Below, one piece after another: positions 1 through 29,011 of a stretch of DNA of 32,000 nucleotides. Positions within the stretch are counted from its first letter, which is position 1. Every line of letters begins with the position of its first letter. The notes beneath the pieces were generated by a model. The model was not told the origin of the DNA. It saw only the letters and a program-made list of their open reading frames with translations, and ran no database searches. Position numbers and translations under genes: made by a program. Source of the DNA: Paenibacillus sp. GSMTC-2017 (GTDB lineage: Bacteria; Bacillota; Bacilli; Paenibacillales; Paenibacillaceae); NCBI RefSeq assembly GCF_016019935.1, contig NZ_JAECMT010000003.1, forward strand, positions 570,208 to 602,207, read 5' to 3'.

Positions 1-1203
1 ATGAAAAAGCCGTCACAGGAGTCTCTTAATTGCATTCATCAATTGCTTGATAGTTTTTGGGTTGTACGCAAGGAAAATCCGGAGCTGTTTTATGAAATCA
101 AACAAAACGAAGGGTTCCTGCGGGATTACTTTAAGGACTACTTCCGTTTTAAATTGGTGGTCGGAGCAAATTTTGCAAAAGTCGAGAAGTTTCAAGTAAC
201 ACCTCAACCGTCAACAGGTATATCAGATTTCAAAGAAGTGAAAGATTACGTCATTTTTTACTGCGTACTTGCGTTTTTGGATGGAAAGGCATCAAAACAA
301 TTTGCATTGTCGGACATTTGCCAAGCGGTCGTTTCGTACTACCCGAGGAGTTTAAAAGGAATAGTCAGTGAAAATACACCGATATTAACATGGAAGGGTA
401 GCGAAGGGTATAAAAATCGACTATCCCTTGTCCGTGCATTGAAAGAAGCTGTTCGGCGGTGTTTGATAGAAGTAATGGATAAAAATATTGAAGACTTCCA
501 AGACAGAGAAACGAATGATGCGCTGTTGCGTTCAACCGGACTTGTGAAATATTTTATGCGTAATATCAGTTTTAATATTGTAGAAAAGTTGAGGCTAAAC
601 GATATCGTGTTGCTTCAAGAAATGCAGGAACGGGAATTAGGTGTAGAAAGAAAGCATTTGCTGTATCGGAAACTGTTTTTGGAGCCAGCCTTGTATCGGC
701 ATGAAGTTTCGGCGGCAGATTTTGATTACTTAAGACAGTATGGACGTCATCTAAATGAACATGTTGAAAAATACTATGATATGAATGTGGATGTTTACGG
801 GAGCAGTGCTTTTTTAGTAAAAGAGAACGTCGGCACTTTTCGGCGGTTTTTCCCAGCGAACAATGCCGAATCTAATCTAGTTGTTCAGTTTGCAACGTTG
901 TTGCGGCTTAAAATCATCGACGATAATGACAGTCTCGTTGAACAAAAAGATGGGACAGTTAATTTAACCGACATTGATTTGGATATTATGTGCCGGCAGC
1001 TTATTGATGAGAACAGTCATGGATGGACGACGGGGCTAAAAAGCATGAGTGTCGCTGAAGTTAAGAATACAATTAAAAACATGCTATTTGAATGGAAGTT
1101 AGCAGAGGTAACGAAAGAGGGCGATTTGAAACTATACGATGTAATCGGAAGATTTTTCGAAAAACCTAAAGAAGAAAAAATAAAGGAGAATGACGATGAC
1201 TAA
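1..1203 (+). CDS. jetB: Wadjet type II JetB-like protein (DUF2398/TIGR02678-like)
   Basis: A 400-aa ORF starts at window base 1 and may extend upstream. Its stop overlaps the start region of the downstream SMC-like ATPase gene, which suggests translational coupling. The N-terminal stretch NPELFYEIKQNEGFLRDYFKDYFRFKLVV and the acidic tail EEKIKENDDD fit my recollection of this family. The assignment rests mainly on synteny with jetC. Confidence 0.6.
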   Translation: MKKPSQESLNCIHQLLDSFWVVRKENPELFYEIKQNEGFLRDYFKDYFRFKLVVGANFAKVEKFQVTPQPSTGISDFKEVKDYVIFYCVLAFLDGKASKQFALSDICQAVVSYYPRSLKGIVSENTPILTWKGSEGYKNRLSLVRALKEAVRRCLIEVMDKNIEDFQDRETNDALLRSTGLVKYFMRNISFNIVEKLRLNDIVLLQEMQERELGVERKHLLYRKLFLEPALYRHEVSAADFDYLRQYGRHLNEHVEKYYDMNVDVYGSSAFLVKENVGTFRRFFPANNAESNLVVQFATLLRLKIIDDNDSLVEQKDGTVNLTDIDLDIMCRQLIDENSHGWTTGLKSMSVAEVKNTIKNMLFEWKLAEVTKEGDLKLYDVIGRFFEKPKEEKIKENDDD

Positions 1204-4200
1204 CCATGCACGGCGTTGGAAACCTCACCGCGTCATCCTATTTAATTATTGGTATTTTAATTATGAAGAATATTACTTCAAGAACGGAAGACTGCTACTG
1301 CGTGGTCATAATGGTGCGGGTAAGTCGATTGCCATGAACACGCTTTTTACATTCATGCTGGATGGAAACAAGGATCCTAAGCGGTTGGACCCATTTGAGT
1401 CAAGTGACCGTAAGTTTTATGACATCTTGCTTGGCGAAGAGTCGTTAAACAAGGACATTATCGAGCGCATTGGTTATGTTGTGATTGAATATAAGTTAAC
1501 AAACACGGAGCAGTACATCACGACTGGATTTGGACTGCATTCCAAACGAAAAAACAGAAGGTTGGAAGATGCCTGGGGGTTTGTGATTCATGATCGCTCT
1601 CGGCGTATTGGGCGCGGAACAAATCCGATCTCGCTCTATAAGGTAGAAGTATTAGATGGATCACCGGAGCAAATCCCTTTAAATAGAAAAGAAATAACAG
1701 CAGTAATCCGTGAGAGTGGTACGGTCGTTGATAGTAAAGAATACGCTGAACTGATTAATAAGCAACTATTCAAGTTTCCAGATGTAACAGGACTTAAGCT
1801 TTTTACTGATGTTCTCGTGCGGCTTAAGAGCCCTAAGCTAACCAAAGGCGGGGGGCCGGACGATTTAAAGGAAACATTGAACGAATCATTGCCACCATTA
1901 TCCGACCAAGAATTGTCTGCACTAACCACTACCGTAGAAGCGCAAGACCAAACGCAGCGGGAAATTCTAAAAACACAAAGCGACCTTGGTTTTGCAACGA
2001 AACTGGATAAAGGTTATGACGATTATATTTCATATGTATTTGCAGAGAAGGCTAAGTACTATTTGGAAAGCAACAACACGTGGAATGCCATTGCGTTGGA
2101 ACATCAAACGGTACTAAGTGATATTGAAACCAAGAGTGTTGACTACAATGAGACGGAGCAAAAAATCCGAAATATTGAACATGAAATTGAAGGTTTGAAG
2201 CAAGCAAGGCAGGAATTGGGACATGATAAAATAGTGAATTTGGACGATACTCTTCAATCTGCCAAACGGGAGCTAACCCGAATATCGAATGAAAAATCAG
2301 ACCAAACAGATCGCTATGATTTGAAGAAAGCATCATTAACGGATGCTAATAATGAACGACGTAATATTGAAAATGAATTATGGGTAATTGAGAAAGAACT
2401 AAAAGCCGCGTTGGAAAGTTTGGAGGAGTTGGGGATGGATTCGGCATTTGAAGACATCTATCTGGCATTCTCTGATCATTTCAAGCGAAATGAGAAAATT
2501 GAAAATTATAATTTTTCAAATTGGGAGTCTAATATAAGAATCAGGCTTCAAAGGCTTGGGGTGCTGCTCAAAAAAATTAACGAACTGGACCAAAAGAAGC
2601 GCGACTTGGATGGTATGAGACAACAAATCGAAGAGAAACAAGGCGTTCTTGAAATTGAAAGAGAAAAGCGTATGAACCTTGCGAACATCTATGATATGGA
2701 TCGAAATAACGCTTATGCTGAGCTTGAAAACTGGATAAATGAATTAACAGCTCTTGTGCTCAGCGCTAATAGCAGTACGAGCGTGAAAAGGATGATTAAT
2801 GGATATCTAGAAAATGTGACTGAAGAGCAGTTGATATGGCCAATCACGCGTGAGCGTGAAGAACAAGTATCCCAGTGTCTTATGGAGCAAGCATTAGTAG
2901 ACGCTAAAATGCAATCAAAGATTGAAAAAAGAAAGCTCACCAAAGAAGAACTCTGTTTTCTTGAGGGGGCTGATGAAATAGAACCTGAGCTTCCGATATC
3001 CAAGGAAAATCAAATAAGGGAATTCAAAGAAAGGGGAATTCCATGTGCACCGTTTTACGCTGTAGTTGATTTCAAAGGAAACCTTACTGAGGAGCAGAAA
3101 TCACGGTTGGAGTCGGTCTTGACTGAAACTGGCGTACTAACCTCGCTGATTGTACCTAATAACCGTTATAACGAATCATTATCTGGAACGGTTCTTAGTG
3201 CTCATCAGGCTAAGGCATCGAACAATCTAACAAAGTATCTAGATGTTTCGGCTGCCGGGGATGTGAGTCATGATGATGTGCTAGCAGTTCTGCAGGGGAT
3301 TTCGGTTTCCGTTGAGGACGCTTATTTTGTAACGGCTGAAGGATCATTTAAAGGTTCCTTTACAGCCGGAACGGCCTCGCAGTATGGGGTGGCCAAGTAT
3401 ATTGGAAAGCATGCTAGGGAACAAGAGCGGCTCCGCAAAATCGCGGTGTTAAAAGAAAAAGTAGCCGCTCTCGAGTTCGAAATTGAGGAGCTTGAAGTGC
3501 TTTTTAATGAAAGTAAAGTGAGGCAATGGCAAATTGAAGTTGAGTACCAATCGTTTCCGAAATTTTCGCCTCTAAAGGACGCCAAGCAACAATTTGAATC
3601 CGTTGCAAAACGCATCACAGAATTGTTGGAACCTGAGCTCATGTCGTTAAATGAAAAATTTAAGGAACTAAAAACTAACGTGGAGAAGCAAAGCAGGAAC
3701 CTGAACGCAGAATTCGAAGACATCGCTATTGAGAAAAATGTGCAGGTAGTAAATGGTACGTGTGAAGGTTTGCTTAATTTCGAGCGCGCATTATCAAATC
3801 TAAAAATCACTTACCGTTCAAGAGAGGATAAACAAATTCTTCTAAAGAATCAAGATGACAAGATAGACACTATTAAAGATGGTGTGAATGACGCAAAGGC
3901 AGCCGTTCTATCACTAGACGGGCAAATCAAGAAAATAAATGTTCGAATAGAAAATTATAAAAAGCAATTAGAGGACATTGACGCGGATAACATTCGTGAG
4001 CTTGCCAAAAGTATTAACGATAAACTGGAACAATTGCCAAAGGACCAAAGAGAGCTGGACGGACAACTTAGTGAACTGAAAAACAATTTAAAAAATCTTC
4101 GTAATCGCCTTCCAGTTGGAGCTCAGAAGGAACACTTTATGAAGGAGCTTGTTTTGGCGTGGGAAAGTGCCTTTCTGCAAGATGCAAAAGAATTCAGTGA

Positions 4201-5377
4201 AAAGTTTGGGCTTGAAACCGAATCAGATACGAAATTGCTTGCTGAGAGTGTCAAAGCGAAGTTCGGACAACTTCTCGCGAAGAAGGATAGAACGAAAAAT
4301 AAAAGTGAATTGGGCAATGTCTTCTCAGATGCGGACAAGGGATTACCGGAATACAACTTAACGATGGAGCCAATGGAATTCGAGTTCGAGTTTTCTTATA
4401 TGGCTATTGAAGACGAAATTCGTGTAGAAATGCTTAAAACGATAGCCAGACGTGAAAAAATTACACTAGAGTATCAGTCTCGTCGTGTTTCGCCGTCGTT
4501 TGCCAAAACCAAGCTGACCGAGCAAGACCAAATGCTTGCAGAGGTAATGGCTGAAAAGGATCGCGAGATTTACGAAGATATCCTGATTAACCATGTCGGA
4601 GATACGGTAAAAAACAAAATTCGAAATGCGAAAGAATGGGTAATACGTATCAATACAATAATGGAAAAGACACAGAACTCCAGCGGACTGAAGTTTGAAG
4701 TCGAGTGGTCACCGAAAAGGACCGACAATGAACAAGAACTCGATACGATAGAATTAATGCGATTTTTGGAGAAAGATCCCATATGGCTTGCGGATTCCGA
4801 TAGGAAAAGGATAGCCCAGCATTTTCGTTCCAAGGTGTATGAAGCGAAACGTAAATCTGAGTTGAGCGGTACACCGACCTTCATGGAAGATATTAAGTTG
4901 GTCTTAGATTATCGAGATTGGTATGAATTCATTATTTACTACGAAAAAACAGGAGAAAAGCGCAAAGAAATGAAGAAAAGCAATTACAATACCTTCTCCG
5001 GAGGTGAGCGAGCAATGGCGATGTATACACCACTCCTAGCAGCGGTTGATGCACGTTTACAAAATGCTCACTGTGAAGCACCTCGTATATTTGCACTAGA
5101 CGAAGCGTTTGCTGGCGTAGATGATAACAATATCAGAGAAGCGTTTAAAGTTATTGAGATGTACGACTTTGATTACACATTAAACTCACAATCTTTATGG
5201 GGTTGTTATGAGGAAGTGCCTGATCTTTCGATTTATGTTCTGAGTCGAATGGGGAATTCAAACCTTGTTAATTCAACGGCATACTCATGGAATGGTATTA
5301 AGCAGACGCGTGTGGAAGAACCGTATGAAATAAGTGAAGACATTCAATCTTCGTTTGTTCAAAATACATTGTTTTGA
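1196..5377 (+). CDS. jetC: Wadjet JetC, SMC-like ABC ATPase (TIGR02680-like)
   Basis: The ORF is about 1393 aa. Walker A is GHNGAGKS (nt 1304-1327). A very long Glu/Lys/Leu-rich coiled-coil forms the middle. The C-terminal head carries the signature FSGGERAMAMY, Walker B IFALDEAFAGVDD and LNSQSLWGCYEEVPDLSIYVL, as in JetC/MukB-like proteins. The ORF track starts at 1190, but the AAAGGAG RBS (1182-1188) fits ATG 1196 better. Confidence 0.85.
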   Translation: MTNHARRWKPHRVILFNYWYFNYEEYYFKNGRLLLRGHNGAGKSIAMNTLFTFMLDGNKDPKRLDPFESSDRKFYDILLGEESLNKDIIERIGYVVIEYKLTNTEQYITTGFGLHSKRKNRRLEDAWGFVIHDRSRRIGRGTNPISLYKVEVLDGSPEQIPLNRKEITAVIRESGTVVDSKEYAELINKQLFKFPDVTGLKLFTDVLVRLKSPKLTKGGGPDDLKETLNESLPPLSDQELSALTTTVEAQDQTQREILKTQSDLGFATKLDKGYDDYISYVFAEKAKYYLESNNTWNAIALEHQTVLSDIETKSVDYNETEQKIRNIEHEIEGLKQARQELGHDKIVNLDDTLQSAKRELTRISNEKSDQTDRYDLKKASLTDANNERRNIENELWVIEKELKAALESLEELGMDSAFEDIYLAFSDHFKRNEKIENYNFSNWESNIRIRLQRLGVLLKKINELDQKKRDLDGMRQQIEEKQGVLEIEREKRMNLANIYDMDRNNAYAELENWINELTALVLSANSSTSVKRMINGYLENVTEEQLIWPITREREEQVSQCLMEQALVDAKMQSKIEKRKLTKEELCFLEGADEIEPELPISKENQIREFKERGIPCAPFYAVVDFKGNLTEEQKSRLESVLTETGVLTSLIVPNNRYNESLSGTVLSAHQAKASNNLTKYLDVSAAGDVSHDDVLAVLQGISVSVEDAYFVTAEGSFKGSFTAGTASQYGVAKYIGKHAREQERLRKIAVLKEKVAALEFEIEELEVLFNESKVRQWQIEVEYQSFPKFSPLKDAKQQFESVAKRITELLEPELMSLNEKFKELKTNVEKQSRNLNAEFEDIAIEKNVQVVNGTCEGLLNFERALSNLKITYRSREDKQILLKNQDDKIDTIKDGVNDAKAAVLSLDGQIKKINVRIENYKKQLEDIDADNIRELAKSINDKLEQLPKDQRELDGQLSELKNNLKNLRNRLPVGAQKEHFMKELVLAWESAFLQDAKEFSEKFGLETESDTKLLAESVKAKFGQLLAKKDRTKNKSELGNVFSDADKGLPEYNLTMEPMEFEFEFSYMAIEDEIRVEMLKTIARREKITLEYQSRRVSPSFAKTKLTEQDQMLAEVMAEKDREIYEDILINHVGDTVKNKIRNAKEWVIRINTIMEKTQNSSGLKFEVEWSPKRTDNEQELDTIELMRFLEKDPIWLADSDRKRIAQHFRSKVYEAKRKSELSGTPTFMEDIKLVLDYRDWYEFIIYYEKTGEKRKEMKKSNYNTFSGGERAMAMYTPLLAAVDARLQNAHCEAPRIFALDEAFAGVDDNNIREAFKVIEMYDFDYTLNSQSLWGCYEEVPDLSIYVLSRMGNSNLVNSTAYSWNGIKQTRVEEPYEISEDIQSSFVQNTLF

Positions 5378-5596
5378 GTTTGGTGACGTCCACCGCATGC
5401 AGCGTAGGCAAATGCAATTCAACATGAGATAATCTGGGCAAACTCATAAGTAATAGTATCACAAGATTTCTTGATTTTTTTATCGTGAATTCCCCCTTTG
5501 CGGCAAGAAAGAACTATCGCTTAAAAAGATGATAGTACATAACTTCAATATGTTTACTAAAATCTTATAGGAAGACATACAGGAGGAACTAGATAG

Positions 5597-7720
5597 ATGC
5601 AAACATCATTACAGCAGTTAGTTGAGGTTTTCCGAGACATTGATGGTTTTAACAGAGTGTTTTTACTTTTTCGACAAAAATACAGAAGTTACGGGAGAAT
5701 TACCAAAAGTACCACAGTTATTCTTGAAGATCCGACACTTGATGAGTTGAAGGTATTAAATGGATTTTTGGGTTCGACTTATGAGAAAGAAGAAGCAGTC
5801 CCAATTACTGCTGACGAAATCGAGAGAGAAATTCGAAATAGTAAATATCGAGAATTATTCGATGGATACGATCTAAGTGATTTTCTGAAAATTTATTACG
5901 GGGGGAAGTTAACCTCAAAAAGTGAAGACAAGCGCCGTTATGATGCAGAGAAGATGAAATTTTTTCAATCATTCTTGAGTGAAACTCAGATGGAAAGTTC
6001 ATTTTATCGATTTATTTCGTTTATCAGGACTTATAAAAATGCACCATCGGTTCATAACGCCTACAAAAAAAGCCCAGAATCACTCGAAGGCCTACTAATT
6101 TTAACAAATAATCTGTTTGAGCAGTTGCCATTCAACAATGACATCGATCTGCCCATGCTTGCATATAAGCTTAGAGGGGACTATCATGCGTTGGCTCCTA
6201 ACTCGGATGCTGGCAAGATGATAATATTTGCTTTACAAGTATTAAATCACTTGGCTAAAGATGCTGAAGTTCTTCCGAAACTCGAAGATGAACAAATAGA
6301 GAAACTGTTGAAGGAGTATGGCATCTTGTTCTGTCCAGAATCCAATAAGATGGCACAACGGTTGTGGATTGCTGATATCAAGAATGGTGAAGAGATGAAG
6401 AATTATCAACTAATTCCCTTGGAGAAGATTGATCGGGGATCTTTTGCACAGGTGTACAGGGTTTTTGACCCGATTGAAAGAAGAGAGTGGGCTTGCAAAG
6501 TATTGTTTGAAAGATCATATTTTATGCAATCCTATGGGAAAGATGGGGAAGAATATCTACGACGTTTTAAAACAGAGATTAATTTGCTTCGAGATCATAT
6601 CGTGCATTCTAATATTATTGAAATTGACAAGATGCAGCTAGAGCGTGATCCTGTACTGTTCACAATGCCATTAGCGACAACTTCCCTAGATAAATGGATA
6701 ACTTCGAACCCTACTTTACCCCATGAGACAAAGTTAAGCATTTTCAAGGATATTTTAAGTGGTGTTGCTTATCTACATCAGCATCCAATCAGTCATCGGG
6801 ACTTGGCCCCTCAAAATATTTTGTTGTTTCAACAAGATGCTGGAAAAGTAGTGGCAAAAGTAGCTGATCTTGGCTTGGCTAAAGATCATCGAGCGCTCTC
6901 TTCCATCACAAGATATTCGCAAGCTTCATATGGAAGGGAGGCGTTTACTGCCCCAGAGCAAAAGAAAAGTCTAAAAAATGCTGATGCTTTATCCGATATT
7001 TATTCTCTTGGGGCGTTGCTTTATTATATATTTAGTGGAACTTCACCTGAATATATATTAAAATCGTCTATTACTTATCAGCATATTGTTGGAAAAGCAA
7101 TGAGAGATGATCGCTCCAAACGTTATCAAACTGTTCAAGAGTTGTGGGACGATATGATGAATAGTCCGCTAGCAATAGATTATTACTCATTTGAAGGTTT
7201 GATAAATTATAAATTTAATGATTTTACCAATGATGTGAATCATGTATTAAGATGTCTGACAACAGTTGATATTTGGGAAGAGAATGAAGTTCTTCGGACA
7301 TTTATTAAGGCGTTAATCTCTGTGCCACTTAATATAATGGCAAAATGTTCAAGGCATGAGATGGTGATGGTTCCTTTCATACATACTGTAAAGAAGAATA
7401 TAGATAGAGCAGAGTGTAGGGATGAGGAATGGTATCATGTTTCATTGCGCATAGCAGAAATTTATAAAGAAACTCAATATAGTGCGTTGAAATTATTGGC
7501 AGCTCAACTCATTCTAGTTATTTCCTTAAAAAAGGAGAGTAAATTGACTCAAAATATACTGGTGGATATTTTATCAACCTTAACGGGTCAAAATGCACTT
7601 TCCCAACAAATTGCAAATGTTATTGAGAATGAATTCTTAAGCTATCATGATGTATTAATTGGACTTTTAAAGAACATTGACTACCCATCCAACATACGTT
7701 TTGCTCTAAACGATTTTTAA
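5597..7720 (+). CDS. JetD N-terminal (DUF3323/TIGR02679-like) region fused to a Hanks-type Ser/Thr protein kinase plus an unassigned helical C-terminal domain; no Toprim domain
   Basis: An uninterrupted 707-aa ORF follows an AGGAGG RBS (5581-5586). Residues 1-255 show JetD-N-like patterns (YGRITKSTTVILEDPTLDELKVLNGFLG; RGDYHALAPNSDAG). Residues 270-520 (nt 6404-7156) carry the full set of kinase subdomains: the beta3 Lys in WACK(301)VL, the catalytic loop H400-RDLAPQN, D424-LG, TAPE(454), DIYSLGALLYYIFSG and RY510. Residues 521-707 are helical with no motif I recognise. Confidence 0.8.
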   Translation: MQTSLQQLVEVFRDIDGFNRVFLLFRQKYRSYGRITKSTTVILEDPTLDELKVLNGFLGSTYEKEEAVPITADEIEREIRNSKYRELFDGYDLSDFLKIYYGGKLTSKSEDKRRYDAEKMKFFQSFLSETQMESSFYRFISFIRTYKNAPSVHNAYKKSPESLEGLLILTNNLFEQLPFNNDIDLPMLAYKLRGDYHALAPNSDAGKMIIFALQVLNHLAKDAEVLPKLEDEQIEKLLKEYGILFCPESNKMAQRLWIADIKNGEEMKNYQLIPLEKIDRGSFAQVYRVFDPIERREWACKVLFERSYFMQSYGKDGEEYLRRFKTEINLLRDHIVHSNIIEIDKMQLERDPVLFTMPLATTSLDKWITSNPTLPHETKLSIFKDILSGVAYLHQHPISHRDLAPQNILLFQQDAGKVVAKVADLGLAKDHRALSSITRYSQASYGREAFTAPEQKKSLKNADALSDIYSLGALLYYIFSGTSPEYILKSSITYQHIVGKAMRDDRSKRYQTVQELWDDMMNSPLAIDYYSFEGLINYKFNDFTNDVNHVLRCLTTVDIWEENEVLRTFIKALISVPLNIMAKCSRHEMVMVPFIHTVKKNIDRAECRDEEWYHVSLRIAEIYKETQYSALKLLAAQLILVISLKKESKLTQNILVDILSTLTGQNALSQQIANVIENEFLSYHDVLIGLLKNIDYPSNIRFALNDF

Positions 7721-7721
7721 T

Positions 7722-7940
7722 ATGAAGGTGTTTAAACGTTATGCTATGAATCGTGCCATTAGTGTAGTAATGGAAGTCCTGCATGGTAAGAACAAAACGT
7801 GTATTAGTTTCACATGGAAACTTAATCATGCTCCTACTTAAGAATTTTAATGACCGTAAGGGGTTTAAGGAGTGAAACCTTTATCTAATTCTGATGTATT
7901 TTATCTTTCCTTCTTAGAAGAGAAGCCCACCATTCATTAG
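7722..7940 (+). pseudogene. Possible 3' remnant of a histidine-phosphatase (phosphoglycerate-mutase-like) family gene, frameshifted
   Basis: Three short frame segments join into FKRYAMNRAISVVMEVLHGKNK / RVLVSHGNLIMLLLKNFNDRKGFKE / VKPLSNSDVFYLSFLEEKPTIH*. This resembles the C-terminal third of the family, including the VSHG catalytic-His motif. There is no N-terminal half. The remnant begins 1 nt after the kinase stop codon. Confidence 0.3.
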
Positions 7941-8367
7941 ATATGGTCAGAATCATCTACATTAGAGAGCAAGCATACTCTCTTGGACATGTACATATTT
8001 GTTGTTACTGTATAATCCGCACTATAGATAGTGCGAAAAGTTTAAGACAAAGAGGGAGTTTAGGCTCCCCTCTCTTGTTAATGGATTTATGAAATAGTAG
8101 TTGATAGTGATACCATCATCGACGCTGACTTCAATTTTCCTTATCAATTTGTGTATGATATCTCATAGTGTTTCTTCGTCAGGAGCTCGTGTTTCAGAAA
8201 CTTCATTAACTCATTTTGAAAAAATTATAGGTATTGAGTCCAGAATTCTATATCTAATAACAGTTTCTCTAACTCCGCAGTGCGAGACTTTAATGCTTCC
8301 TGTGCTCATGTGATTTCTCTAACTATCTCATCGTAGATTACCTTCGTAATCCTTCAGATGATACTAA

Positions 8368-8969
8368 TTATTGGGTTAATAAGATTAGCTCATTCTTCCG
8401 TTGTTTAAGCTGACTTTTGATATTCGTAATTTCACTTTGTAAAAGGTTGGTGTTTAGTTCTGCCCATTTCATGGTTCTTCATATTTTGTGATTCTGATGT
8501 TAATGACGCGATGTCTACTAATACTACCGTTTTTAATGTTTCGTGCTTGATGAAGTGGGAAGAGCAATGTTTACATATGTCGCACATATATTGCCTCTCT
8601 GGTACTACTTATAATTAGAACCTTGAGATACACTCCGAACAGAATACCAGCCTTGCGAATAGTGGCTTTTTATCTCTTCCGCGAACAGTTCTTATAGATT
8701 TTATTTCCCACTAATGTTGAGCTTTCATGAACGCGTCATCTCTAAATCAAAAGTTCATAACTGCCAACTATAACTGCATGTTGCTCAAGGTCGTTTTTAA
8801 TTTGTTCCTTGTGTCCCTTTTTCTGAAGAAATAATTTGTAATCGCTATTAACAAATTCTTGCTCTTGAACCAACTTGTCAGTATAGTGAGGATTGCTGAT
8901 ACTGCATTTAGCGGTTGTGTCATAAAATTTTGTCTGTTTTTTGGGTAGGGAATTTTTTTTGTCATTCAA
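8368..8969 (-). pseudogene. Large serine recombinase pseudogene (recombinase domain, zinc ribbon and coiled coil), inactivated by in-frame stops and frameshifts
   Basis: The minus-strand translation reads ...KFYDTTAKCSISNPHYTDKLVQ...EQHAVIVGSYELLI(fs)DDAFMKAQH*WEIKSIRTVRGRDKKPLFARLVFCSECISRF*L*VVPERQYMCDICKHCSSHFIKHETLKTVVLVDIASL...(fs)KWAELNTNLLQSEITNIKSQLKQRKNEL. This matches the ILxNPxYxG recombinase-domain pattern, the CxxC...YxCxxxxxxC zinc beta-ribbon and the following coiled coil of large serine recombinases. Weaker remnants may extend to about 9505. Confidence 0.5.
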
Positions 8970-9910
8970 ATGGCAGGCTATCTTATGGAGTTCCCATCTG
9001 ATTATTGACTTTACAATAGATGATGAAGCATCAACTTACAATAGAAATGTGTACAACTACTGAGCTAAAGAAGTACGGAATAAGTCTATCAAGAGAGTAA
9101 CTAGAACAATTAAATGTGGTTTGTTTTCTACGGGTGATTGATTTCACGGATTCTCGGCGTTGTATTACTTAAAGTTTTTTTATGGAAGGTAATAATAAAT
9201 CACTGGCTGAGACGCTGAGCTACTTTCCAGTGTGAGTTAGAATATTAAACAAAATGAGCTGTTTATTCAGCATTTTAAGTGATTGTATGACGAGTAGAAG
9301 GATACTGGGTCATGATTTAATGTTCGGAGGGAAATTCAAGGAAATTCTGGCTGTAATCGTTTTGCAAATTGACAAATTTCCCAAGCAAGTAGTGAAGGAT
9401 AATATAGGTATTACCGCATGAAAAGATAAATTTTTTATTTCTGCAAGAAACTGAAACATGCATCGCGTATAGTGCGTTATAAACTTCAAATTGAGGAGTA
9501 CTCATCTAATAACCAGATGCTACAACTAATGCTGACAATGCCAAGAGTGGCTAGGCAACAACTGTCATAATCTATCAACCTTATATTCTCCACTTATACA
9601 AAGATATACAGATATTTTCGGGGAGATAAAGGATTATCTTTTGGAAAATGGAGTTACTTAGGAGGGAGGGGGCGGTAGCTGGAGATTACATACATAGTTG
9701 AGAAGTCCCCTACTCACCTACACTGTTTATTGAAATGTCAAAATAACTTCTTATCTAATAAAATCAGACAAAATTTATGCTCTTTGAACCGATAGAAAGT
9801 ATAAATGAGAATTAGTATCGAATATATGCTCTTTCAGATGATATGTTTTATTAAAACAGATTTTCGATGACCTCTCTGCAACAATTGAAGAAGTGGTAGC
9901 GATACACGAG

Positions 9911-9938
9911 CTGATGAAATCATTTTTTCTTTTATAAT
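9911..9938 (+). promoter_or_regulatory. Candidate sigma-A promoter for the ATPase/DUF4435 operon
   Basis: A perfect TATAAT lies at 9933-9938. CTGATG (9911-9916) sits 16 nt upstream as a weak -35. The site is about 90 nt upstream of the GGGAGGG RBS and ATG 10025. Confidence 0.2.
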
Positions 9939-10024
9939 ACATTAGAAACTTCTCGTCCTATTAGTTTATTAAGAAGGTATTCTAATATTTTCATTGAATA
10001 TAAGTTTATGGGAGGGATTGGAAT

Positions 10025-11467
10025 ATGAAATATTCTATGCTTAATATTAATAGGTTTAATATCAACAAAATGTTTGGATGGAAAGATGTTAATTTAACAT
10101 TTGATGGGAATGTAAAAATTTATGTAGGGGAGAATGGTATAGGTAAAACTACAATCTTAAATATAATTTATTTTACTCTCACACTGGATTTTGAAAAGTT
10201 GAGAGAAATTGATTTTGAGTCTATTGAGATTGAATTCAAAAACAAAGAGAACGCAATTATTAAACGTGAATGGCTTTTAATTGAGAATGACTCCTTTGAT
10301 TTCGATAGATATAGATTGCGATTGAACCGACATTTAACTCCTGATGAATTTGAATTTGTATTTAATAAAATTTATAGAGCAAGAGAAAAGACATTAGATG
10401 ACTTCATTAATTTATTCAATGATGGGCTAATAACCAGACGAGCTAATGTTAATGGGATTTTTAGCGACATAAAAAGACTTGAAATTCATGCGGATGCAAG
10501 ATACTCGGACTATGTTAATAATGTTAGAAAAGCAATTTCTAAAAATATCACACAAAGGATATTATACTTTCCTACATATAGACGTATAGAAGAAGATTTA
10601 AATAAATTAGGATACAAAATTCAAAAAGAAGAAGAAAAATCAGCTTATTTATCTCAAAATAGTAATAAAGCAAGTAACATAGTCCTTAATACTGGTGAAA
10701 TTATTCAATTTGGAATGAATGATGTATACGCCCTCATTGAAAAGTTAGAAAAAAAAATTCAAGATTCAACGTTGTCCGGATATTCACAAATAACTGGAAA
10801 GATGATTAATCATCTGGTACACGATAATAAAGTAGATATTGAAATGAAGGAAGTTGTGAAAAATGCAGAATCTTTGAATATTGTGCTTGAGAGAGTTGGT
10901 ACTCATCTAGATAAAAACGATAAAATACGGATAAGAGATTTAGTCGCATCAAATGTACTATTCGAATCTAATCAAAATAATTATAATCCATTGATATATT
11001 TTTTATATAATTTAATACAGCTTTATGAAGAGCACAGTGAAATCGACAATTCAATTAAGTTATTTAGAAAAGCATGCAACAACTTTTTAGTTGACAAGGA
11101 AATCGTGTACAACGAAAGTTTAGTGAAAGTTAATGTTATGAATAAGTATGGTAATAAGATAGAACTGAGCAATTTATCTTCTGGAGAAAAGCAAATAGTT
11201 TCACTATTTTCCAAAATATATCTAGATATTAATAATGAATTTGAATTTAATACTAGCAACGATTTTGTCATATTATTTGACGAACCAGAATTATCATTGT
11301 CAATTGAATGGCAAGAGAAGTTATTGCCAGAAATTATGTCCTCGGGAAAATGCTCATTTATGCTAGCAGTAACTCATTCTCCATTTATATATGCAAATAA
11401 CTTACGTGATTGCGCAGAAAGTATTCAAGATTGCATGAAGGAGACTGAGCAACGAAATGGTCAATAG
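10025..11467 (+). CDS. ABC/AAA-type ATPase of a PARIS/AbiL-type defence pair (AriA/AbiLi-like)
   Basis: The ORF is 480 aa with a GGGAGGG RBS. Walker A is GENGIGKTT (nt 10127-10150). The C-terminal head has LSSGEKQIVSLFSKIYL, Walker B VILFDEPELSLS and H-loop LAVTHSPFI. It overlaps the downstream DUF4435-like gene by 11 nt. Hand counts of sampled lines give about 27-28% GC. Confidence 0.75.
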   Translation: MKYSMLNINRFNINKMFGWKDVNLTFDGNVKIYVGENGIGKTTILNIIYFTLTLDFEKLREIDFESIEIEFKNKENAIIKREWLLIENDSFDFDRYRLRLNRHLTPDEFEFVFNKIYRAREKTLDDFINLFNDGLITRRANVNGIFSDIKRLEIHADARYSDYVNNVRKAISKNITQRILYFPTYRRIEEDLNKLGYKIQKEEEKSAYLSQNSNKASNIVLNTGEIIQFGMNDVYALIEKLEKKIQDSTLSGYSQITGKMINHLVHDNKVDIEMKEVVKNAESLNIVLERVGTHLDKNDKIRIRDLVASNVLFESNQNNYNPLIYFLYNLIQLYEEHSEIDNSIKLFRKACNNFLVDKEIVYNESLVKVNVMNKYGNKIELSNLSSGEKQIVSLFSKIYLDINNEFEFNTSNDFVILFDEPELSLSIEWQEKLLPEIMSSGKCSFMLAVTHSPFIYANNLRDCAESIQDCMKETEQRNGQ

Positions 11468-12398
11468 TGAAAGTCCACAAAATCGTGTAGAATTCATGGA
11501 AAGAAAGGCTAAGCTTATTGCTGGATACCATAAGTTTCTCCAAAATTATACAAAATACAAAGAGGCACCAATATGTTTTGTGGAAGGAGAAGATGAAAGG
11601 TATTACCACCTAAGAGTAAAGTTATTATGTGATAATCTAGAACCTCAGTTTATTATTTGTGGTAATAAAGATGGTGTACTGAATACTTTTGACTTAATAA
11701 ATAGTTCAGAAAAATATTCAGATTGTAAATTATTATATTTTGTAGATTCAGATTTTGACCCTAGAATATCAAATAATTTAATTTATGAAACACCCTGTTA
11801 CGCAGTTGAAAACTTCTATACCAGCCGAGAAGTTGTATCAAAAATACTTAAATGTGAGTTTAAGTTTGATGAAGATGGCCCTGACTTTTCTACTGCAATG
11901 AAGTTATATTCAGAAAGACAAAGTGAATTCCACGAAGCAATTTCATTGCTTAATGCGTGGATTGCTTGTCAGAGAGATATAGCAAGGACCGGTATAATGA
12001 CTAGATTAAATTTAGGCGGGCTAAAGATAAATAATTTTGTAGCAATTGAGTTAGATAAAGTTGAAATGAGATATGACATTGATTTAATAGAATCAAAATT
12101 TTCACATGCATACATTTTACCGAGGGACAATGTTACTACCAAACAAGAGGAGCAGAACATTGCAAATAAGCGCTTGATTTTTAGAGGGAAATTCGAATTA
12201 GAATTTACTAAAAAATTTTTACAAAAGGTTAAGGATGACATAACTAGCCAAGAGCCAGCTTTTTTCAGTAAAAAAAGGAGTATTAGTATCAATATTCAAG
12301 AAGCGATTTCTCAATTTTCTATTTATGCAGAGACAACTAATTGTCTGATTGAATACACAAAACAACAATGGACAAGTTTATCGAGAGAAGCAGTATAG
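11457..12398 (+). CDS. DUF4435 (Toprim/OLD-like) protein, AriB/AbiLii-like effector
   Basis: The ORF is 313 aa. It carries the hallmark N-terminal acidic motif CFVEGEDERYYH (Glu43 at nt 11583) and a second acidic cluster, LYFVDSDFD, as in DUF4435. The ATG overlaps the end of the ATPase gene, preceded by GAAGGAGA 12 nt upstream. Confidence 0.7.
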   Translation: MVNSESPQNRVEFMERKAKLIAGYHKFLQNYTKYKEAPICFVEGEDERYYHLRVKLLCDNLEPQFIICGNKDGVLNTFDLINSSEKYSDCKLLYFVDSDFDPRISNNLIYETPCYAVENFYTSREVVSKILKCEFKFDEDGPDFSTAMKLYSERQSEFHEAISLLNAWIACQRDIARTGIMTRLNLGGLKINNFVAIELDKVEMRYDIDLIESKFSHAYILPRDNVTTKQEEQNIANKRLIFRGKFELEFTKKFLQKVKDDITSQEPAFFSKKRSISINIQEAISQFSIYAETTNCLIEYTKQQWTSLSREAV

Positions 12399-12835
12399 AT
12401 AAATAAGGTGAACACTGGTACATCCTTTTAGTTGTCAATAATAATGAATCCATACATGTGATGTGTATAAATTAATGATAAGGAAATCAAAGAATGAGAA
12501 ATGACATATTCGCTGAAGAAGTAAAAAGACAGGAAGATGATACATGTGGAGTGCGTTAAAGGGATTTGCCGAGTCGATACCTAGATTTCTATAGCTATGG
12601 GAAATAGGCGAAGTATTTCTCCTTTGCGAAGAACGATAGTGCTAACAAAATAAAGTACTACGAGATTCGATTAAAGCTTCGGTTGTTTTTGTTGTACACC
12701 ATTTATCTCTCGAATATATAGTGGCTAAACCAGTCAGAACCGGTCAGAGAGAAGCGTGACTAATTGGAAACAGAACAGCTTGACAGCAAGGAGGTTATAA
12801 CGAGGTTTAATCCTATCATGACATTGGGATTTATT

Positions 12836-12868
12836 AGCGTACGGAAGTCTGAGCATCTTCCGTACGTT
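12836..12868. repeat. Perfect 12-bp-stem hairpin (AGCGTACGGAAG-9 nt-CTTCCGTACGTT), function unknown
   Basis: Read directly from the sequence. All 12 positions pair, with one G-T wobble. It lies in ORF-poor DNA between convergent genes and has no flanking T-tract. Confidence 0.6.
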
Positions 12869-13120
12869 GAAATTCGGGAAAAGATTACTTGAGCAGCCGG
12901 TATTGTTCATGCCGTCACGTAAGAACGATTTCAGCACTAGAATACTGATTAAGATGAAAGAGAAGTTCGCAAAGTCAGATGCGCCAGCTCTGCAAAATAA
13001 AGTGACGCTTTACTTGGAAGAGTAGTGCCCAGCCATGTACGGCGCGGCACCGTGCAAACCCCCTCCCTACTACCGTAAGCTGCGAAGAGGGAGGGATTCG
13101 CTCCAAAATCGGCCTCTGGG

Positions 13121-23519: not shown

Positions 23520-25829
23520 TTAATTATATTCCTGCACTCTGAGCAACAGGACAACTGCTTCCGCACGAGTCATTGAAGCATTCGGTGCGAAAAGATTGTT
23601 ACTCCGTCCGTTTAAGATACCTGCTTCTTTGAGTGCTTTCACTGCGCCTTTTGCCATTTGTGGAATGTTAGCATCATCCTTATAACCGGTAGCTGTAACT
23701 CCGTTCGCATTCAGTTTAAGTGCTTTAGCAATCATCATAGCCATTTCTGCACGGCTGATTGTTTTATTCGGCTTAAAGCTGCCATCTTGATAACCACTGA
23801 TGATGCCTTCTTTTACAGCTATAGAGATAGCCGTTTGCGACCAAGCAGGGATAGTATCTCGATCCTTGAATGTGAGTGTCGTACCATTACTTTTCGGCTG
23901 CAAAACACTTATTAGCATAACTGTGAATTCTGCTCGCGTGACGGTGTTGTTCGGCTTGAAAGTACCGTCGGGATAGCCGTTAACAAGTTTGTTTATCACA
24001 GCTTGCTTGATTTGTTGCTCTGCCCAATGTCCGGCAATATCGGTAGGTAGTTTTGGTTGTTCTGGTTTTTCTGGTTGAATTGGCGGTATCGGTTTTTCGG
24101 GTTGTTTTGGTTGTTCAGGTAGTTCTGGTTTTTTCTGTTGCTGAATGGTTATGGTGTATTTTTTCTGTGCACCATTTTCCGCATATACGAACACTTTTAA
24201 TATATTTTTACCCTCTGCCAAAACAGTGTTCACTCCGTCCATCACTATTTGTTCGTTTAGCGTAAATATGACCGAAGCTTTTTCATGCTCAGTATTAGCT
24301 TTGACTTTAAGATGCTTTGCTTTAGTTTCAGTTTCTAAGGTATAGCTCTCAATTCCCACATTAAATTTCGGGGTAAGCGGGATCAATGTACCATCTAAGA
24401 GTAATTCCAATGACTTTAGATTAAAATTGCTGGATAAGTCCGGACCTGTTGAAAGTGAAAGTACTTTAACAATTCGAATGACGGTGTCAGCAGCATTACC
24501 AGCATTATCGGTAACATTATAACGAATCGTATATGCTCCTATTTTATTCGTATCGACCGTATCTCCAGAGATGATAATTCGATCACTTATATCTCCATCA
24601 TATAAATCGGAGGAGATAGCTCCTGCATCCGTATATGTCTGTCCTTGGCGAATTTCGATAGCGGCTGCACCTTTCAAAGCAATAACTGGTTTCTCTCGAT
24701 CGATGTTCTCAATTTTCAATTGCTCAACCGTTTCGTTGCCGACTTTATCTTTTGCATAAACGCTGATCCAACCGTTATCGCTTAGAACAATATTCGTTTT
24801 TCCATCTACGACTACAGGGATTGTTCCTGCGTTTGCAAAGTAGTTACTGTCATGTTGCCCCAAGTCGTACTTCACTACATCAATTCCGCTCTCATATTCA
24901 TATACACTCGCCGTAACGGTAACATTTCCACGAGTAGAGTGTTCAGGATTTTTGTGAAATTTGATAGTTGGAGCCGTTCCATCCAGTTTGAATGGATTAG
25001 AAGGTGTAATTTTTGTATAACCGCTTCCATCTTGAATTCGCACATGTAAATACCAAATTTTCGATGATGTAGGTGCTGTGATCGTTTCATTGCCAGAAGA
25101 CGCTGTCCATCCGACATTGCTGTCAAGCTCTATTTCATTGTTAGACCATTTGTAATCTATCTTGTCTGTTGCGCTACCAGGATTGGTAATAGAAAGTGTG
25201 ACATCTCGTCCAGGGGATGAAACCCACGTCGAACCATATCCATTGGGTGATATTTTAACTGCAACTATGTCATCAATATTGCTAAATTTAATAAGAGGAT
25301 TAGTGCTGGCAAAATCAGCTGCTGTTGAACCGAGGTAACCATATATCTTTTTAAGTGGTGAAGCATCAAAGGCATTAACATTAATAATTGTTGTTTTACC
25401 TTCAAAAATCACGTTGCTTAATGGGTTGTTTTTAAAAGCTGAACTTCCTAATTCAGTTACACTACTCGGGATAATTATATTCGTTAATTGGTTGTCTAAA
25501 AAAGCCATACTCTCAATGCTAGTTACACTATTCGGAATTACTGCACTCGTTAATTTTCTTTGTTTAAAAGCACTATTTCCTATTTTAGTTACACTATACT
25601 TTTCGCCGGAAACTACAACTACACTAGGTATTTTTACATCTGTATTGCCACCGTTGTAATCTGTGATTGTAGCCGTTTTCGAAACTTGGTCTACGCTGTA
25701 CACAAAATCGTCTACAGCACTAGCATTGGCAATCTTCCTCCCTGCAAATGTCCACGTGCTCGTCATAAACACTGCGATAAGCATCATTACTACCAGTACT
25801 TTTTTCATATTAGCGCGAAACAACCTCAT
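23520..25829 (-). CDS. Secreted multidomain surface protein: BspA-type LRRs, Ig-like/DUF5011-like and cadherin-like beta-sandwich domains, Pro-rich linker, three SLH domains
   Basis: The signal peptide is MRLFRANMKKVLVVMMLIAVFMTSTWTFAGRKIANASA. LRR repeats follow (IPSSVT.IG.SAFK...). An Ig-like segment reads PVIALKGAAAIEIRQGQTYTDAGA...YTIRYNVTDNAGN. Three C-terminal SLH repeats are present (DIAGHWAEQQIKQAV..., FKDRDTIPAWSQTAISIAV..., YKDDANIPQMAKGAVKAL...). The start is uncertain: 25829, 25838 or 25808. The track ORF extends to 25871. Confidence 0.85.
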   Translation of the reverse strand: MRLFRANMKKVLVVMMLIAVFMTSTWTFAGRKIANASAVDDFVYSVDQVSKTATITDYNGGNTDVKIPSVVVVSGEKYSVTKIGNSAFKQRKLTSAVIPNSVTSIESMAFLDNQLTNIIIPSSVTELGSSAFKNNPLSNVIFEGKTTIINVNAFDASPLKKIYGYLGSTAADFASTNPLIKFSNIDDIVAVKISPNGYGSTWVSSPGRDVTLSITNPGSATDKIDYKWSNNEIELDSNVGWTASSGNETITAPTSSKIWYLHVRIQDGSGYTKITPSNPFKLDGTAPTIKFHKNPEHSTRGNVTVTASVYEYESGIDVVKYDLGQHDSNYFANAGTIPVVVDGKTNIVLSDNGWISVYAKDKVGNETVEQLKIENIDREKPVIALKGAAAIEIRQGQTYTDAGAISSDLYDGDISDRIIISGDTVDTNKIGAYTIRYNVTDNAGNAADTVIRIVKVLSLSTGPDLSSNFNLKSLELLLDGTLIPLTPKFNVGIESYTLETETKAKHLKVKANTEHEKASVIFTLNEQIVMDGVNTVLAEGKNILKVFVYAENGAQKKYTITIQQQKKPELPEQPKQPEKPIPPIQPEKPEQPKLPTDIAGHWAEQQIKQAVINKLVNGYPDGTFKPNNTVTRAEFTVMLISVLQPKSNGTTLTFKDRDTIPAWSQTAISIAVKEGIISGYQDGSFKPNKTISRAEMAMMIAKALKLNANGVTATGYKDDANIPQMAKGAVKALKEAGILNGRSNNLFAPNASMTRAEAVVLLLRVQEYN
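24046..24140 (-). repeat. Degenerate tandem coding repeat (Pro/Glu/Lys/Gln linker)
   Basis: Reiterated GGTT(G/T)TTCTGGTTTTTC-like units encode KKPELPEQPKQPEKPIPPIQPEKPEQPKLP. Confidence 0.5.
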
Positions 25830-26250
25830 GGTTCTCATCACTTCCTTTATTAGAATTGTACTGCTAACCAAATGTTCATTATCGTTAGGGTTGGTAAAGA
25901 TTCAATAAGAACAGCTACAGTGATTTGGAATTCATAACAATCCATAGAAAAAGTTAAACATTACAATTGAAAATATATTTTTTGTATGTATTCTCCTCCT
26001 TTGTGGTCTATAAGGGAATTTTGGGAAGGTGTCCGATAACATGTATAATTACCCATAACTTTTAAAAATGAATCAATAACGTTTAAATCCTATCAAGTCA
26101 CATGCGAGGCGTGATATAATGAAGTCTGATATGTGAATCGGATACACCAACATAAGATAAACGTTCTAAATTATGGAAAAGTTGCTGTTATCACGTATGA
26201 AGTTTGAATAAGATGTCTATTCTATGCTTTAAAATTAAAAATGGAATGAG

Positions 26251-26785: not shown

Positions 26786-27004
26786 GTGTTTTCTAAATGA
26801 CTTTAGGGTGAAAAGTGGGGGGATTCCCGAGATCATAAATAGGAAGATAGGTATTCCTGCGCTGGTGTTGATTATCAAACCCTGCCTCTGATTCAACTTG
26901 AATGTTGAAATTTCAATCTTATGTCCTATTAACCGTCTGGAAAAATTACCCGATAAATTGATGAACTCCTTAAGAGGGGAATATTGTCACGAGGAAGGAT
27001 GAGA

Positions 27005-28825
27005 ATGATGTATAACAGCAAGTGGAAACATGGTGTAATTCAATCGTTCCTTGCCGTATCTTTAGTATTTTCAGTTACTAGTGGGGTTGGTATTCCTAAA
27101 GCTTCAGCGAACGTTTCGCAACAAACATTATTGGAATGGAAAAGCTCCAAAACCTATAAGAAGAGCGACCGTGTTTCTTACAAAGGTTATGAGTATGTTG
27201 CAGGACGCAACACAAAAGGAGATAGACCAGATCGTCCTGGGAGATACGGCTATGTGAATCCTTGGAAAATGGTTGGGAAAGTGAAAGAGCCCGTTATTGT
27301 AGATGTAATTCCACCCACCGTGTCACTTTCATCGAATAATGTTCAATTCAACACAGACGACACACTTCTTCTACAATCCTCAGCGAACGATGCATCCGGT
27401 ATTTCTAAAGTTGAATTTTATCAAAATAATACATTAATCCATACAGCATCATCTGCACCCTTTGAGTATCGTCTCGGAATAACCAAGGAGCTCAATGGTG
27501 AGCATTCATTTGTGGCAAAAGCATTTGATACGATTGGGAATACAGCATCGTCATCACCTGTAAATATACACGTTCAAATTGCCAATAAGGTGCCCGAAAG
27601 TAACATACGAACGATTACGTTTGAACAATTCGGAAATCCGAGAGCGGAAACGAGGGCACTTCGCAGAGAATTTAAGGGAAGCAATATACAGCCAACAGGC
27701 ATTTATGTGAAGCCAAATGAAGTGATTACAGTTACATTGACGACGATGGATGCTACTAAGCTTCCGATTGCAGCAATCGAAGATCCTCATATTACAAAAT
27801 ATAATTATATGCCAGAGTACATAACGTTACAGCCGGGTGAAAATAAACTATCTAGTCCAGCAGGGGGCTTATTGTATTTGCAGCACTTTGCCATTTTTCC
27901 TGTCGCACCAACGGTAACTGTTGAAGGTGGACAAGATATTCCTTATTTCGAATTGGGCAAAACAACAAATGAAGAGTGGCAGAAGATGCTTAATCAGCCG
28001 GACGTCTCACCATGGACAGAACTAATTTCAGACCGAGTATGGATTACAGTGCAGACGAGTAAGGCTAAGCAATACGTTCAAGATGCTACTTTACTAATGG
28101 AAGCGCATGATCGAGTTGTTGCGGAACAAGAAAAAATTTCTGGATTATCGTTTGAAAATGCAAAACCACATCAAGGGCCGAAATATCGTTTTCATTACAA
28201 AGAGTATTTTAGTGATGATCAATACATGTTTGCATGGTACGATATAGCTGGTTTTCATACTGATTCTATTGATGCGATTTTAGATATTAACAGATTTACA
28301 AAAGAAGGCTGGGGTCCATGGCATGAACTTGGGCATTTCCATCAGCAAAATCCATGGACGTGGGATGGGATGGATGAAGTAACGGTAAACATCTACAGCT
28401 TAGCTACACAAAAGATGTTCGGCTTGCAATCTCGACTAGAGAAAGACGGTGTTTATGAAAAAGCATTTGAGTATTTGAACCAGCCGACACGTGATTACAA
28501 CAAGTTAGAAGATCTTTTTGTTAAGGTGACTATGCTTTGGCAATTGCAGCTTGCATATGGCGATCAGTTTTATCCTGAGCTTCATAAGGCCTATCGCGAT
28601 ATGAACTACAATCAACTTCCTCAAACAGATGAAGATATGATTTCAATGTTTATCGTTATGACTTCTAAGACAGCGAACCAAAACCTAATTCCATTTTTCG
28701 AAAAATGGGGTCTTAACGCAGATGAAGAAACGATCAAATTTATCAATGAATTAGGACTTCCGACTTTAACGGCTGAAATTTGGAAAAATCGTGATAGTAA
28801 CAACAACATACTTCCTAACCGTTAA
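27005..28825 (+). CDS. Secreted M60/enhancin-like metallopeptidase with an N-terminal CBM5/12-like module and an Ig-like domain
   Basis: A signal peptide ends ...PKASA. The carbohydrate-binding-like segment is WKSSKTYKKSDRVSYKGYEYVAGRNTKGDRP...W. An Ig-like domain reads PPTVSLSS...ISKVEFYQNN. The zincin motif HELGH lies at nt 28322-28336, in the context WGPWHELGHFHQ. The start was chosen 6 nt after the GAGGAAGG RBS. The track ORF starts at TTG 26984. Confidence 0.8.
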   Translation: MMYNSKWKHGVIQSFLAVSLVFSVTSGVGIPKASANVSQQTLLEWKSSKTYKKSDRVSYKGYEYVAGRNTKGDRPDRPGRYGYVNPWKMVGKVKEPVIVDVIPPTVSLSSNNVQFNTDDTLLLQSSANDASGISKVEFYQNNTLIHTASSAPFEYRLGITKELNGEHSFVAKAFDTIGNTASSSPVNIHVQIANKVPESNIRTITFEQFGNPRAETRALRREFKGSNIQPTGIYVKPNEVITVTLTTMDATKLPIAAIEDPHITKYNYMPEYITLQPGENKLSSPAGGLLYLQHFAIFPVAPTVTVEGGQDIPYFELGKTTNEEWQKMLNQPDVSPWTELISDRVWITVQTSKAKQYVQDATLLMEAHDRVVAEQEKISGLSFENAKPHQGPKYRFHYKEYFSDDQYMFAWYDIAGFHTDSIDAILDINRFTKEGWGPWHELGHFHQQNPWTWDGMDEVTVNIYSLATQKMFGLQSRLEKDGVYEKAFEYLNQPTRDYNKLEDLFVKVTMLWQLQLAYGDQFYPELHKAYRDMNYNQLPQTDEDMISMFIVMTSKTANQNLIPFFEKWGLNADEETIKFINELGLPTLTAEIWKNRDSNNNILPNR

Positions 28826-28941: not shown

Positions 28942-29011
28942 TAATTAGTAAAAACTAGAAATTGACCTAACCCTTTGCTAATGACTAAGTAATGATGGGG
29001 TGTTTAACGCA

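Follow-up and report, generated by a model that had tools for sequence, protein, structure and literature searches.

A 32,000-nucleotide stretch of the genome of Paenibacillus sp. GSMTC-2017 (contig NZ_JAECMT010000003.1, positions 570,208 to 602,207; hereafter the window) opens on three genes of a Wadjet defence operon, all on the plus strand: jetB at nucleotides 1-1203, jetC at 1190-5377 and, in the slot of the nuclease gene jetD, an open reading frame (ORF) of 707 amino acids at 5597-7720. The protein encoded by this third ORF, here called JetD*, had the same sequence (100% identity) as a 'protein kinase' recorded for Paenibacillus sp. GSMTC-2017. It consisted of an N-terminal aCAP domain, a Hanks-type kinase domain and a helical repeat. 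A first-pass annotation made from the sequence alone had given the three ORFs the same coordinates and had read them as a type II-like Wadjet operon in which a kinase replaces the Toprim nuclease domain of JetD. That anatomy was borne out, and it is nearly certain that the locus derives from a type II Wadjet whose Toprim domain was exchanged for a kinase and a helical repeat.

The product of jetB, a type II tandem KITE subunit (DUF2398), matched PF09661 (1.3e-64) and PADLOC JetB2 (2.9e-107); its score against TIGR02678, 122 bits, was slightly below the cutoff of 124.65. The type II SMC (structural maintenance of chromosomes)-like ATPase encoded by jetC, 1395 amino acids in length, matched TIGR02680 (5e-192; 640.9 bits against a cutoff of 462.85), PADLOC JetC2 (E=0) and the solved type II structure 9QE0 (1.1e-166). 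The two genes overlapped by 14 nt, and JetC carried the Walker A motif GHNGAGKS at residue 39, the signature FSGGER at 1269 and the Walker B/D-loop LDEAFAGVD at 1301, so the tight coupling and the ATPase head described in the first-pass annotation were both present. Walker A, signature and Walker B were intact in all kinase-type loci checked. Between jetC and the fusion gene lay a spacer of 219 nt (5378-5596, plus strand) with an AGGAGG ribosome-binding site at 5581-5586, read from the sequence. No terminator-like site was found in this spacer by scan, and a single weak promoter-like match at 5405-5433 was not above chance.

The window opens on the ATG of jetB. In frame 3 of the plus strand, overlapping the start of jetB, nucleotides 3-29 read EKAVTGVS followed by a stop, the last 8 codons and stop codon of a jetA gene. 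This tail matched the JetA end of Paenibacillus sp. S150 (locus L003), HEKAVTGIS and stop, at the same offset, and in L003 jetA overlaps jetB likewise; jetA therefore probably lies directly upstream of the window, a placement that rests on the tail match and on synteny. A jetA gene (DUF2397) was located 5' of jetB in all related loci and was complete in L002, L003, L083-L086, L095 and L097.

Similarity of JetD* to JetD, noted in the first-pass annotation for residues 1-255, extended over amino acids 1-244 (5597-6328, plus strand), which form the aCAP/DUF3323 domain. DUF3323 (PF11796) was matched at amino acids 39-244 (4.7e-20; 72.8 bits against a cutoff of 26.6), and the PADLOC JetD2 profile at amino acids 3-244 (3.5e-38), this match running from profile position 3 and ending at position 235 of 430. 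TIGR02679 gave 3.6e-11 and 42.8 bits against a full-length cutoff of 196. When the N-termini of the fusions were compared with those of canonical JetD2 proteins by profile-profile alignment (hhalign), the probability was 100% (E 4.7e-54). The domain is presumed to be the JetABC-docking module; a PDB sequence search with it recovered no solved JetD2. No match to PF09664, the DUF2399 Toprim domain, was found in the 707-aa protein, and tblastn with three canonical DUF2399 Toprim domains found nothing in the window or within 10 kb in six other kinase-type loci (L002, L003, L083-L086), so that no canonical jetD accompanied jetA in the related loci. With the Toprim domain absent, DNA cleavage by JetD* is not expected.

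In place of the Toprim domain stood the Hanks-type protein kinase domain (amino acids 276-520; 6422-7156, plus strand), which matched PF00069 with 2.5e-31 and 109.5 bits against a cutoff of 31.7. The catalytic residues named in the first-pass annotation (K301, HRD at 400-402, D424/G426 and APE at 452-454) were found where it had put them. In a 30-member alignment K301, E327, H400-R401-D402, N407, D424/G426, A452-P453-E454 and D467 were invariant, as were S435 and T438 of the activation loop (424-447), which was predicted to be disordered. The catalytic set of Hanks-type kinases (Gly-rich loop, VAIK Lys, alphaC Glu, HRD, catalytic Asn, DFG and APE) was thus complete. A pseudokinase or decayed remnant was considered and rejected on this conservation of catalytic residues across the 30 members. 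The AlphaFold2 (AF2) model of full-length JetD* had a mean pLDDT (predicted local distance difference test) of 82.3 and three well-predicted domains, with a pLDDT of ~85-92 for aCAP. Foldseek of the model against the PDB gave 1991 matches at E<=0.001; all 50 listed were protein kinases, and the top match among those listed was S. aureus PknB/Stk1 (E 7.7e-11). PADLOC defence-kinase models were also matched by the kinase domain (mad6 1.7e-41, PD-T4-6 1.6e-34, Stk2 3.1e-34), in the generic core only, and scores stayed below the NCBIfam equivalog cutoffs (MAD6 90.9 against 460; PglW 60.2 against 990; PknB_PASTA 101 against 450). The kinase of JetD* is apparently active.

A third domain, a C-terminal alpha-helical repeat (amino acids ~530-707), was absent from the first-pass annotation. 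It measured ~180 aa and, counted from amino acid ~531 and including the stop codon, corresponded to 7187-7720 on the plus strand; modelled alone, it was all-helical with a pLDDT of 94.5. No significant match to it was found in Pfam, in PADLOC or in the PDB by sequence, or by fold in the PDB and BFVD. The best Foldseek E value was 0.15, to designed helical repeats and ARM/HEAT proteins.

JetD* belonged to a family of about 34 clusters at the 90% identity level, with members of 700-718 aa that combined DUF3323 with Pkinase and were 41-83% identical to the query. They came from Paenibacillus, Desulfitobacterium hafniense DCB-2 and metagenomes. The order jetA-jetB-jetC followed by the fusion gene was seen in all nine loci with a readable upstream flank: the window, L002 (D. 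hafniense), L003, L083, L084, L085, L086 and the metagenomic L095 and L097. In L096 the partial flank ended in jetC, before the fusion. Linkage of the fusion to jetABC, the adjacency that the first-pass annotation had thought worth checking among homologues, was thus obligatory in all loci examined. The genes flanking the four-gene cassette were different at every locus, and nSTAND, restriction-modification and Abi genes occurred close to homologous loci. A contig profile search with a full-length alignment added little: one of the 80 loci listed (L003) was in the family, and the rest were drawn by the generic kinase motif SDIYSLGA. Among PLSDB plasmids there was no kinase fusion; Bacillus megaplasmids gave the only matches, to canonical TIGR02679 proteins with 25% identity. 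The fusion family is a real one and is under selection. Split genes were observed for jetC in L085 (5912-10059), for jetB in the canonical locus L094 (2181-3382) and for the fusion gene in L098 (2-1805); these may be pseudogenes or assembly errors.

When amino acids 1-257 were searched with phmmer against 1.84 billion representative proteins, 270 matches were obtained. Kinase fusions of ~700 aa among them were limited to P0023, P0034 and a fragment, or 2-3 of the 270. The other full-length DUF3323 matches were 384-502 aa long, mostly 420-470, which is the canonical JetD size, and shorter entries were fragments; DUF3323 and DUF2399 were both present in all six non-fusion matches tested. The closest canonical JetD2, P0121 (445 aa), was 43% identical to the window protein (amino acids 4-244) and 57% to P0034, and its homology to both fusions ended at residue ~243. 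P0121 lies in a canonical jetA-jetB-jetC-jetD operon (L094) whose JetA, JetB and JetC shared 57, 44 and 44% identity with their counterparts in the kinase-type locus L086. The end of the P0121 similarity at ~243, together with its L086-related operon, indicates that the swap occurred at the aCAP/Toprim domain boundary, which agrees with the effector swap at a domain boundary proposed in the first-pass annotation. Taken together, these results make the kinase type a rare offshoot nested in type II Wadjet, with the exchange point at the end of aCAP.

Recombination was also seen in comparison with L003, whose JetB and JetC were 92% and 87% identical to those of the window. DNA identity between the two loci was 82-96% over the jetB/jetC coding sequence and stood at 71% in the spacer between jetC and jetD; it was 86% in the first ~400 nt of the fusion gene and fell to ~60% from nt ~5990 on. 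This fall marks a recombination breakpoint inside the aCAP domain, at amino acids ~130-150 (approximately 5990-6050 on the plus strand; ~10400 in L003). In L083 the fusion protein was 77% identical to that of the window, yet JetB and JetC were only 26-27% identical. Evidently, divergent type II operons have swapped the effector gene with one another, in whole or in its 3' two-thirds.

The nearest relatives of the kinase domain were found outside Wadjet, in the P0039 family (~44 clusters, ~615 aa), with kinase domains 50-55% identical and scores of 264-299 bits against 93 bits for the next-best kinases. The family occurred in Paenibacillus, Desulfitobacterium, Desulfosporosinus, Cohnella, Clostridium, Mobilitalea and Sutcliffiella. 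Here too the kinase gene was the fourth gene of an SMC-like operon, in all four loci examined (L087, 5163-11875; L090, 193-7395; L092, 3152-9857; L093, 3174-9827), after genes for a ~430-aa protein, a ~210-aa protein and a ~960-aa SMC-like ATPase. One example of the operon is that of D. meridiei (CP003629.1, 3531108-3548964). The ~210-aa protein of L090 was DUF4194/JetB by Pfam (35.2 bits against a cutoff of 32.7), and the SMC-like ATPase had weak PADLOC matches to JetC1 and LmuB, at about 1e-17; PADLOC did not recognise the operon as a system. The ~355-aa N-terminal adaptor of these kinases had no Pfam or PADLOC match and no non-kinase homologues. A divergent DUF3323 in this adaptor was considered and set aside as not detectable (hhalign probability 0.2%). 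The C-terminal helical repeat of the window protein recurred in P0036 (804 aa), from the P0039-type group, and in P0037 and P0041. The latter two show a third arrangement, of 556 aa, in which the kinase is preceded by a short helical N-terminus and followed by the repeat. This sister kinase clade in an undescribed four-gene SMC-like operon is new here.

Across the 13 contexts examined, the kinase clade was nearly confined to the fourth-subunit position of SMC-type operons, where it was attached via two unrelated adaptors. Its wiring to a second, unrelated SMC-like operon argues for a dedicated output module of bacterial SMC loop-extruding DNA sensors. Such a module would have been captured at least twice, by type II Wadjet via aCAP and by the second operon via the unrelated adaptor, and would convert foreign-DNA topology into a phosphorylation signal and not into a DNA break; we give this generalisation an even chance.

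How JetABC might control the kinase can be considered from what is known of JetD. In type I Wadjet, the aCAP domain of JetD binds the JetC larynx and a JetB helix, and a JetD dimer bridges two motor units at kinked DNA, where its Toprim dimer occupies the apex (10.1101/2023.11.03.565488). Type II JetD is predicted to consist of aCAP and Toprim, with an aCAP interface predicted to differ from that of type I; cleavage by type II requires JetABC, JetD and ATP; the D subunit of one type cannot stand in for that of the other; JetD depends on a cognate JetABC; and the type II cryo-EM (cryo-electron microscopy) sample did not contain JetD (10.1101/2025.03.10.642339). By analogy, the JetABC complex of the kinase type would load on DNA and extrude loops as in canonical Wadjet. 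On small circular DNA, two motor units would reach a stalled state, and this state would recruit two aCAP-kinase protomers instead of a JetD dimer. Proximity of the protomers could lead to trans-autophosphorylation of the activation loop at S435/T438. The active kinase would then phosphorylate host proteins, causing growth arrest or an abortive-type immunity, or replication proteins of the invader. The helical repeat could serve in substrate recruitment, in dimerisation (taking over from the lost Toprim dimer) or in autoinhibition. A kinase that acts as the JetABC-dependent output of a defence system is likely. The fuller account, in which a jetA-jetB-jetC-jetD* operon senses DNA through its SMC complex and JetABC recruits and activates the kinase for phosphorylation, is the best explanation overall, and we hold it with moderate confidence. 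A signalling or abortive-infection function is plausible; any particular output, whether abortive or direct, can be suggested tentatively and is possible rather than probable.

Several observations weigh against this account. The JetA, JetB and JetC proteins of kinase-type loci were 24-36% identical to one another (except for the close pairs window/L003 and L002/L085), whereas the fusion proteins were 43-77% identical, and the two were phylogenetically discordant. A strictly specific aCAP-JetABC interface does not easily fit this pattern, unless conservation of the docking surface or a recent spread of the gene accounts for it. In the catalytic loop, HRDL[A/G/S]PxN (amino acids 400-407; nt 6794-6817), the usual Lys was missing family-wide, so that kinase activity, chemistry or substrate class may be atypical. 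An invariant Arg, R447, was also present in the P+1 loop, where the GT motif ahead of APE normally has its Thr (amino acids 446-455; ~6932-6961), and together with the Lys-less loop it suggests that chemistry or specificity may be unusual. Finally, the P0037-type protein stood alone in Brevibacillus (L088/L089, 10001-11671), with no SMC genes within 10 kb; this 556-aa form may be a system in its own right, or the free-standing form from which the module arose.

Four other explanations were weighed. The kinase could have its direct targets at the trapped plasmid or phage genome, among proteins that the invader encodes or that are bound to the DNA (replication initiators or partition proteins, for instance), so that the element is lost and the host stays unharmed, with no abortive or dormancy response. 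Such an outcome would resemble canonical Wadjet, which is non-abortive and element-specific (10.1101/2025.03.10.642339; 10.1101/2023.11.03.565488). It would also suit the architecture of JetD*, since aCAP would tether the kinase at trapped DNA and the helical repeat could bind a specific target. However, the defence kinases matched by JetD* (Stk2, PD-T4-6 and MAD6) are broad-acting or part of multi-gene systems, and we consider purely direct action unlikely. Slightly less probable still is a kinase that is a regulator and not an effector, with JetABC alone being condensin-like or plasmid-silencing, as is MksBEF without MksG, and with the kinase modulating JetA, JetB and JetC or tying them to cell physiology. 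The cassette had no other effector gene, nuclease-less SMC complexes such as MksBEF do exist, and aCAP would put the kinase beside the JetC heads and JetB. But the JetA, JetB and JetC proteins were of the type II Wadjet kind by PADLOC, and the kinase gene sat exactly in the effector slot. The patchy distribution, varied flanks, low GC content and defence neighbours also speak against a regulator, as does the independent capture of the same kinase clade by a second SMC-like operon.

This JetABC might also work with a canonical Toprim JetD whose gene lies elsewhere in the genome, the fusion being a competitor or accessory at a shared docking site, for which aCAP is conserved enough to compete. 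This is improbable: the tblastn search described above found no DUF2399 in the 32-kb window or near the related loci, the four-gene cassette moves as a unit among genomic contexts, and JetD requires a cognate JetABC (10.1101/2025.03.10.642339). Least credible of all is a decaying or non-functional Wadjet remnant left by an accidental gene fusion. Split genes in some related loci (jetC in L085, the D gene in L098) would be expected of a remnant, but about 34 clusters retained intact ORFs of 700-718 aa, the catalytic residues were invariant, the JetC motifs were intact and the gene order was kept across genera.

The kinase-type operon lay in a low-GC stretch. GC content was 0.28-0.42 over the first 12.4 kb of the window and 0.46-0.51 from about 13 kb on; the step at ~12400-13100 is probably the edge of a defence island, and a two-component system and an ABC sugar transporter were located beyond it. 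Two defence modules occupied the low-GC stretch, both on the plus strand: the operon at 1-7720 and then, in the same island and starting 2.3 kb past the end of the kinase gene, a PARIS pair. The pair consisted of an AriA-like ABC ATPase (10025-11467, plus strand) and AriB/DUF4435 (11457-12398, plus strand; PF14491 1.5e-46; PADLOC AriB 4.5e-39). AriB is a Toprim-family nuclease (PMC11464382), and it was the sole Toprim-family ORF identified in the window. The statement in the first-pass annotation that the 32 kb hold no Toprim-like ORF was thus too broad: it stood for a JetD-type DUF2399, which tblastn failed to find, and did not stand for the Toprim family at large. In the 2.3 kb between the two modules (7721-10024; GC ~0.33-0.36) there was no ORF of >75 aa, no notable repeat and no tRNA, Rfam, PHROG, plasmid or phage match. 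Farther along the window, an 804-aa double ABC ATPase with zinc-finger-like CxxC motifs was encoded at 29000-31414; read from the sequence by eye and not called by a tool, it resembles a UvrA paralogue. Nearby, 26984-28825 encoded an M60-like peptidase and 23520-25871, on the minus strand, an SLH/LRR surface protein.

The current definition of Wadjet turns on the JetD nuclease, with a mechanism of extrusion followed by cleavage. A kinase variant would separate sensing from cleavage and would give a direct handle on how JetABC tells the fourth subunit of small circular DNA. If the proposed coupling is true, SMC complexes can drive phosphorylation signalling in bacteria, a logical counterpart of the eukaryotic SMC-like complexes that activate checkpoint kinases (Rad50/MRN-ATM). 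An effector class would be added to SMC-based immunity, and a second, unannotated SMC-like defence candidate with the same kinase clade is pointed to. Such loci are likely missed or mis-called by current defence-system finders, and they may influence the transformability of Paenibacillus and Desulfitobacterium strains. As the first-pass annotation had supposed for Wadjet, no description of a kinase-coupled Wadjet was found in the open-access literature, and none of a P0039-type operon; subscription-only papers were outside the scope of this search. The broader open-access literature on defence, Ser/Thr kinases and SMC proteins returned known Wadjet/Mks work only.

Among known systems, type II Wadjet (JetABCD-II, e.g., of Neobacillus vireti; PDB 9QE0/9QE1) shared with this locus the JetB2 and JetC2 families, the upstream jetA, the gene order and the DUF3323/aCAP start of the fourth protein. 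Unlike type II Wadjet, the locus has a Hanks-type kinase and a helical repeat and no DUF2399 Toprim; it is Wadjet-like at the sensing end and of type II descent but, with the defining Toprim feature of JetD absent, it should not be filed as canonical Wadjet. Type I Wadjet/MksBEFG (E. coli GF4-3, P. aeruginosa, C. glutamicum) likewise combines an SMC sensor of DNA topology with a fourth subunit recruited via an aCAP-type domain, but its JetA, JetB and JetD fall into other Pfam families and its effector is a Toprim nuclease. Stk2, PD-T4-6, MAD6 and PglW have a Hanks-type kinase domain in common with JetD*, the match being confined to the generic core; neither an SMC complex nor an aCAP domain is part of those systems. 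Lamassu (LmuABC) is similar in having an SMC/Rad50-like sensor with interchangeable effector domains (PMC10586767). However, its sensor proteins are different, the adaptor here is the aCAP of JetD, and a kinase is missing from the effector list quoted in PMC10586767. In the P0039-type operon, the ~355-aa adaptor is not detectably related to DUF3323 and the SMC protein is ~960 aa with weak JetC1/LmuB similarity, in contrast to the locus described here; the kinase clade is nevertheless the same, and in both operons its gene comes fourth, behind kleisin-like, KITE-like and SMC-like genes.

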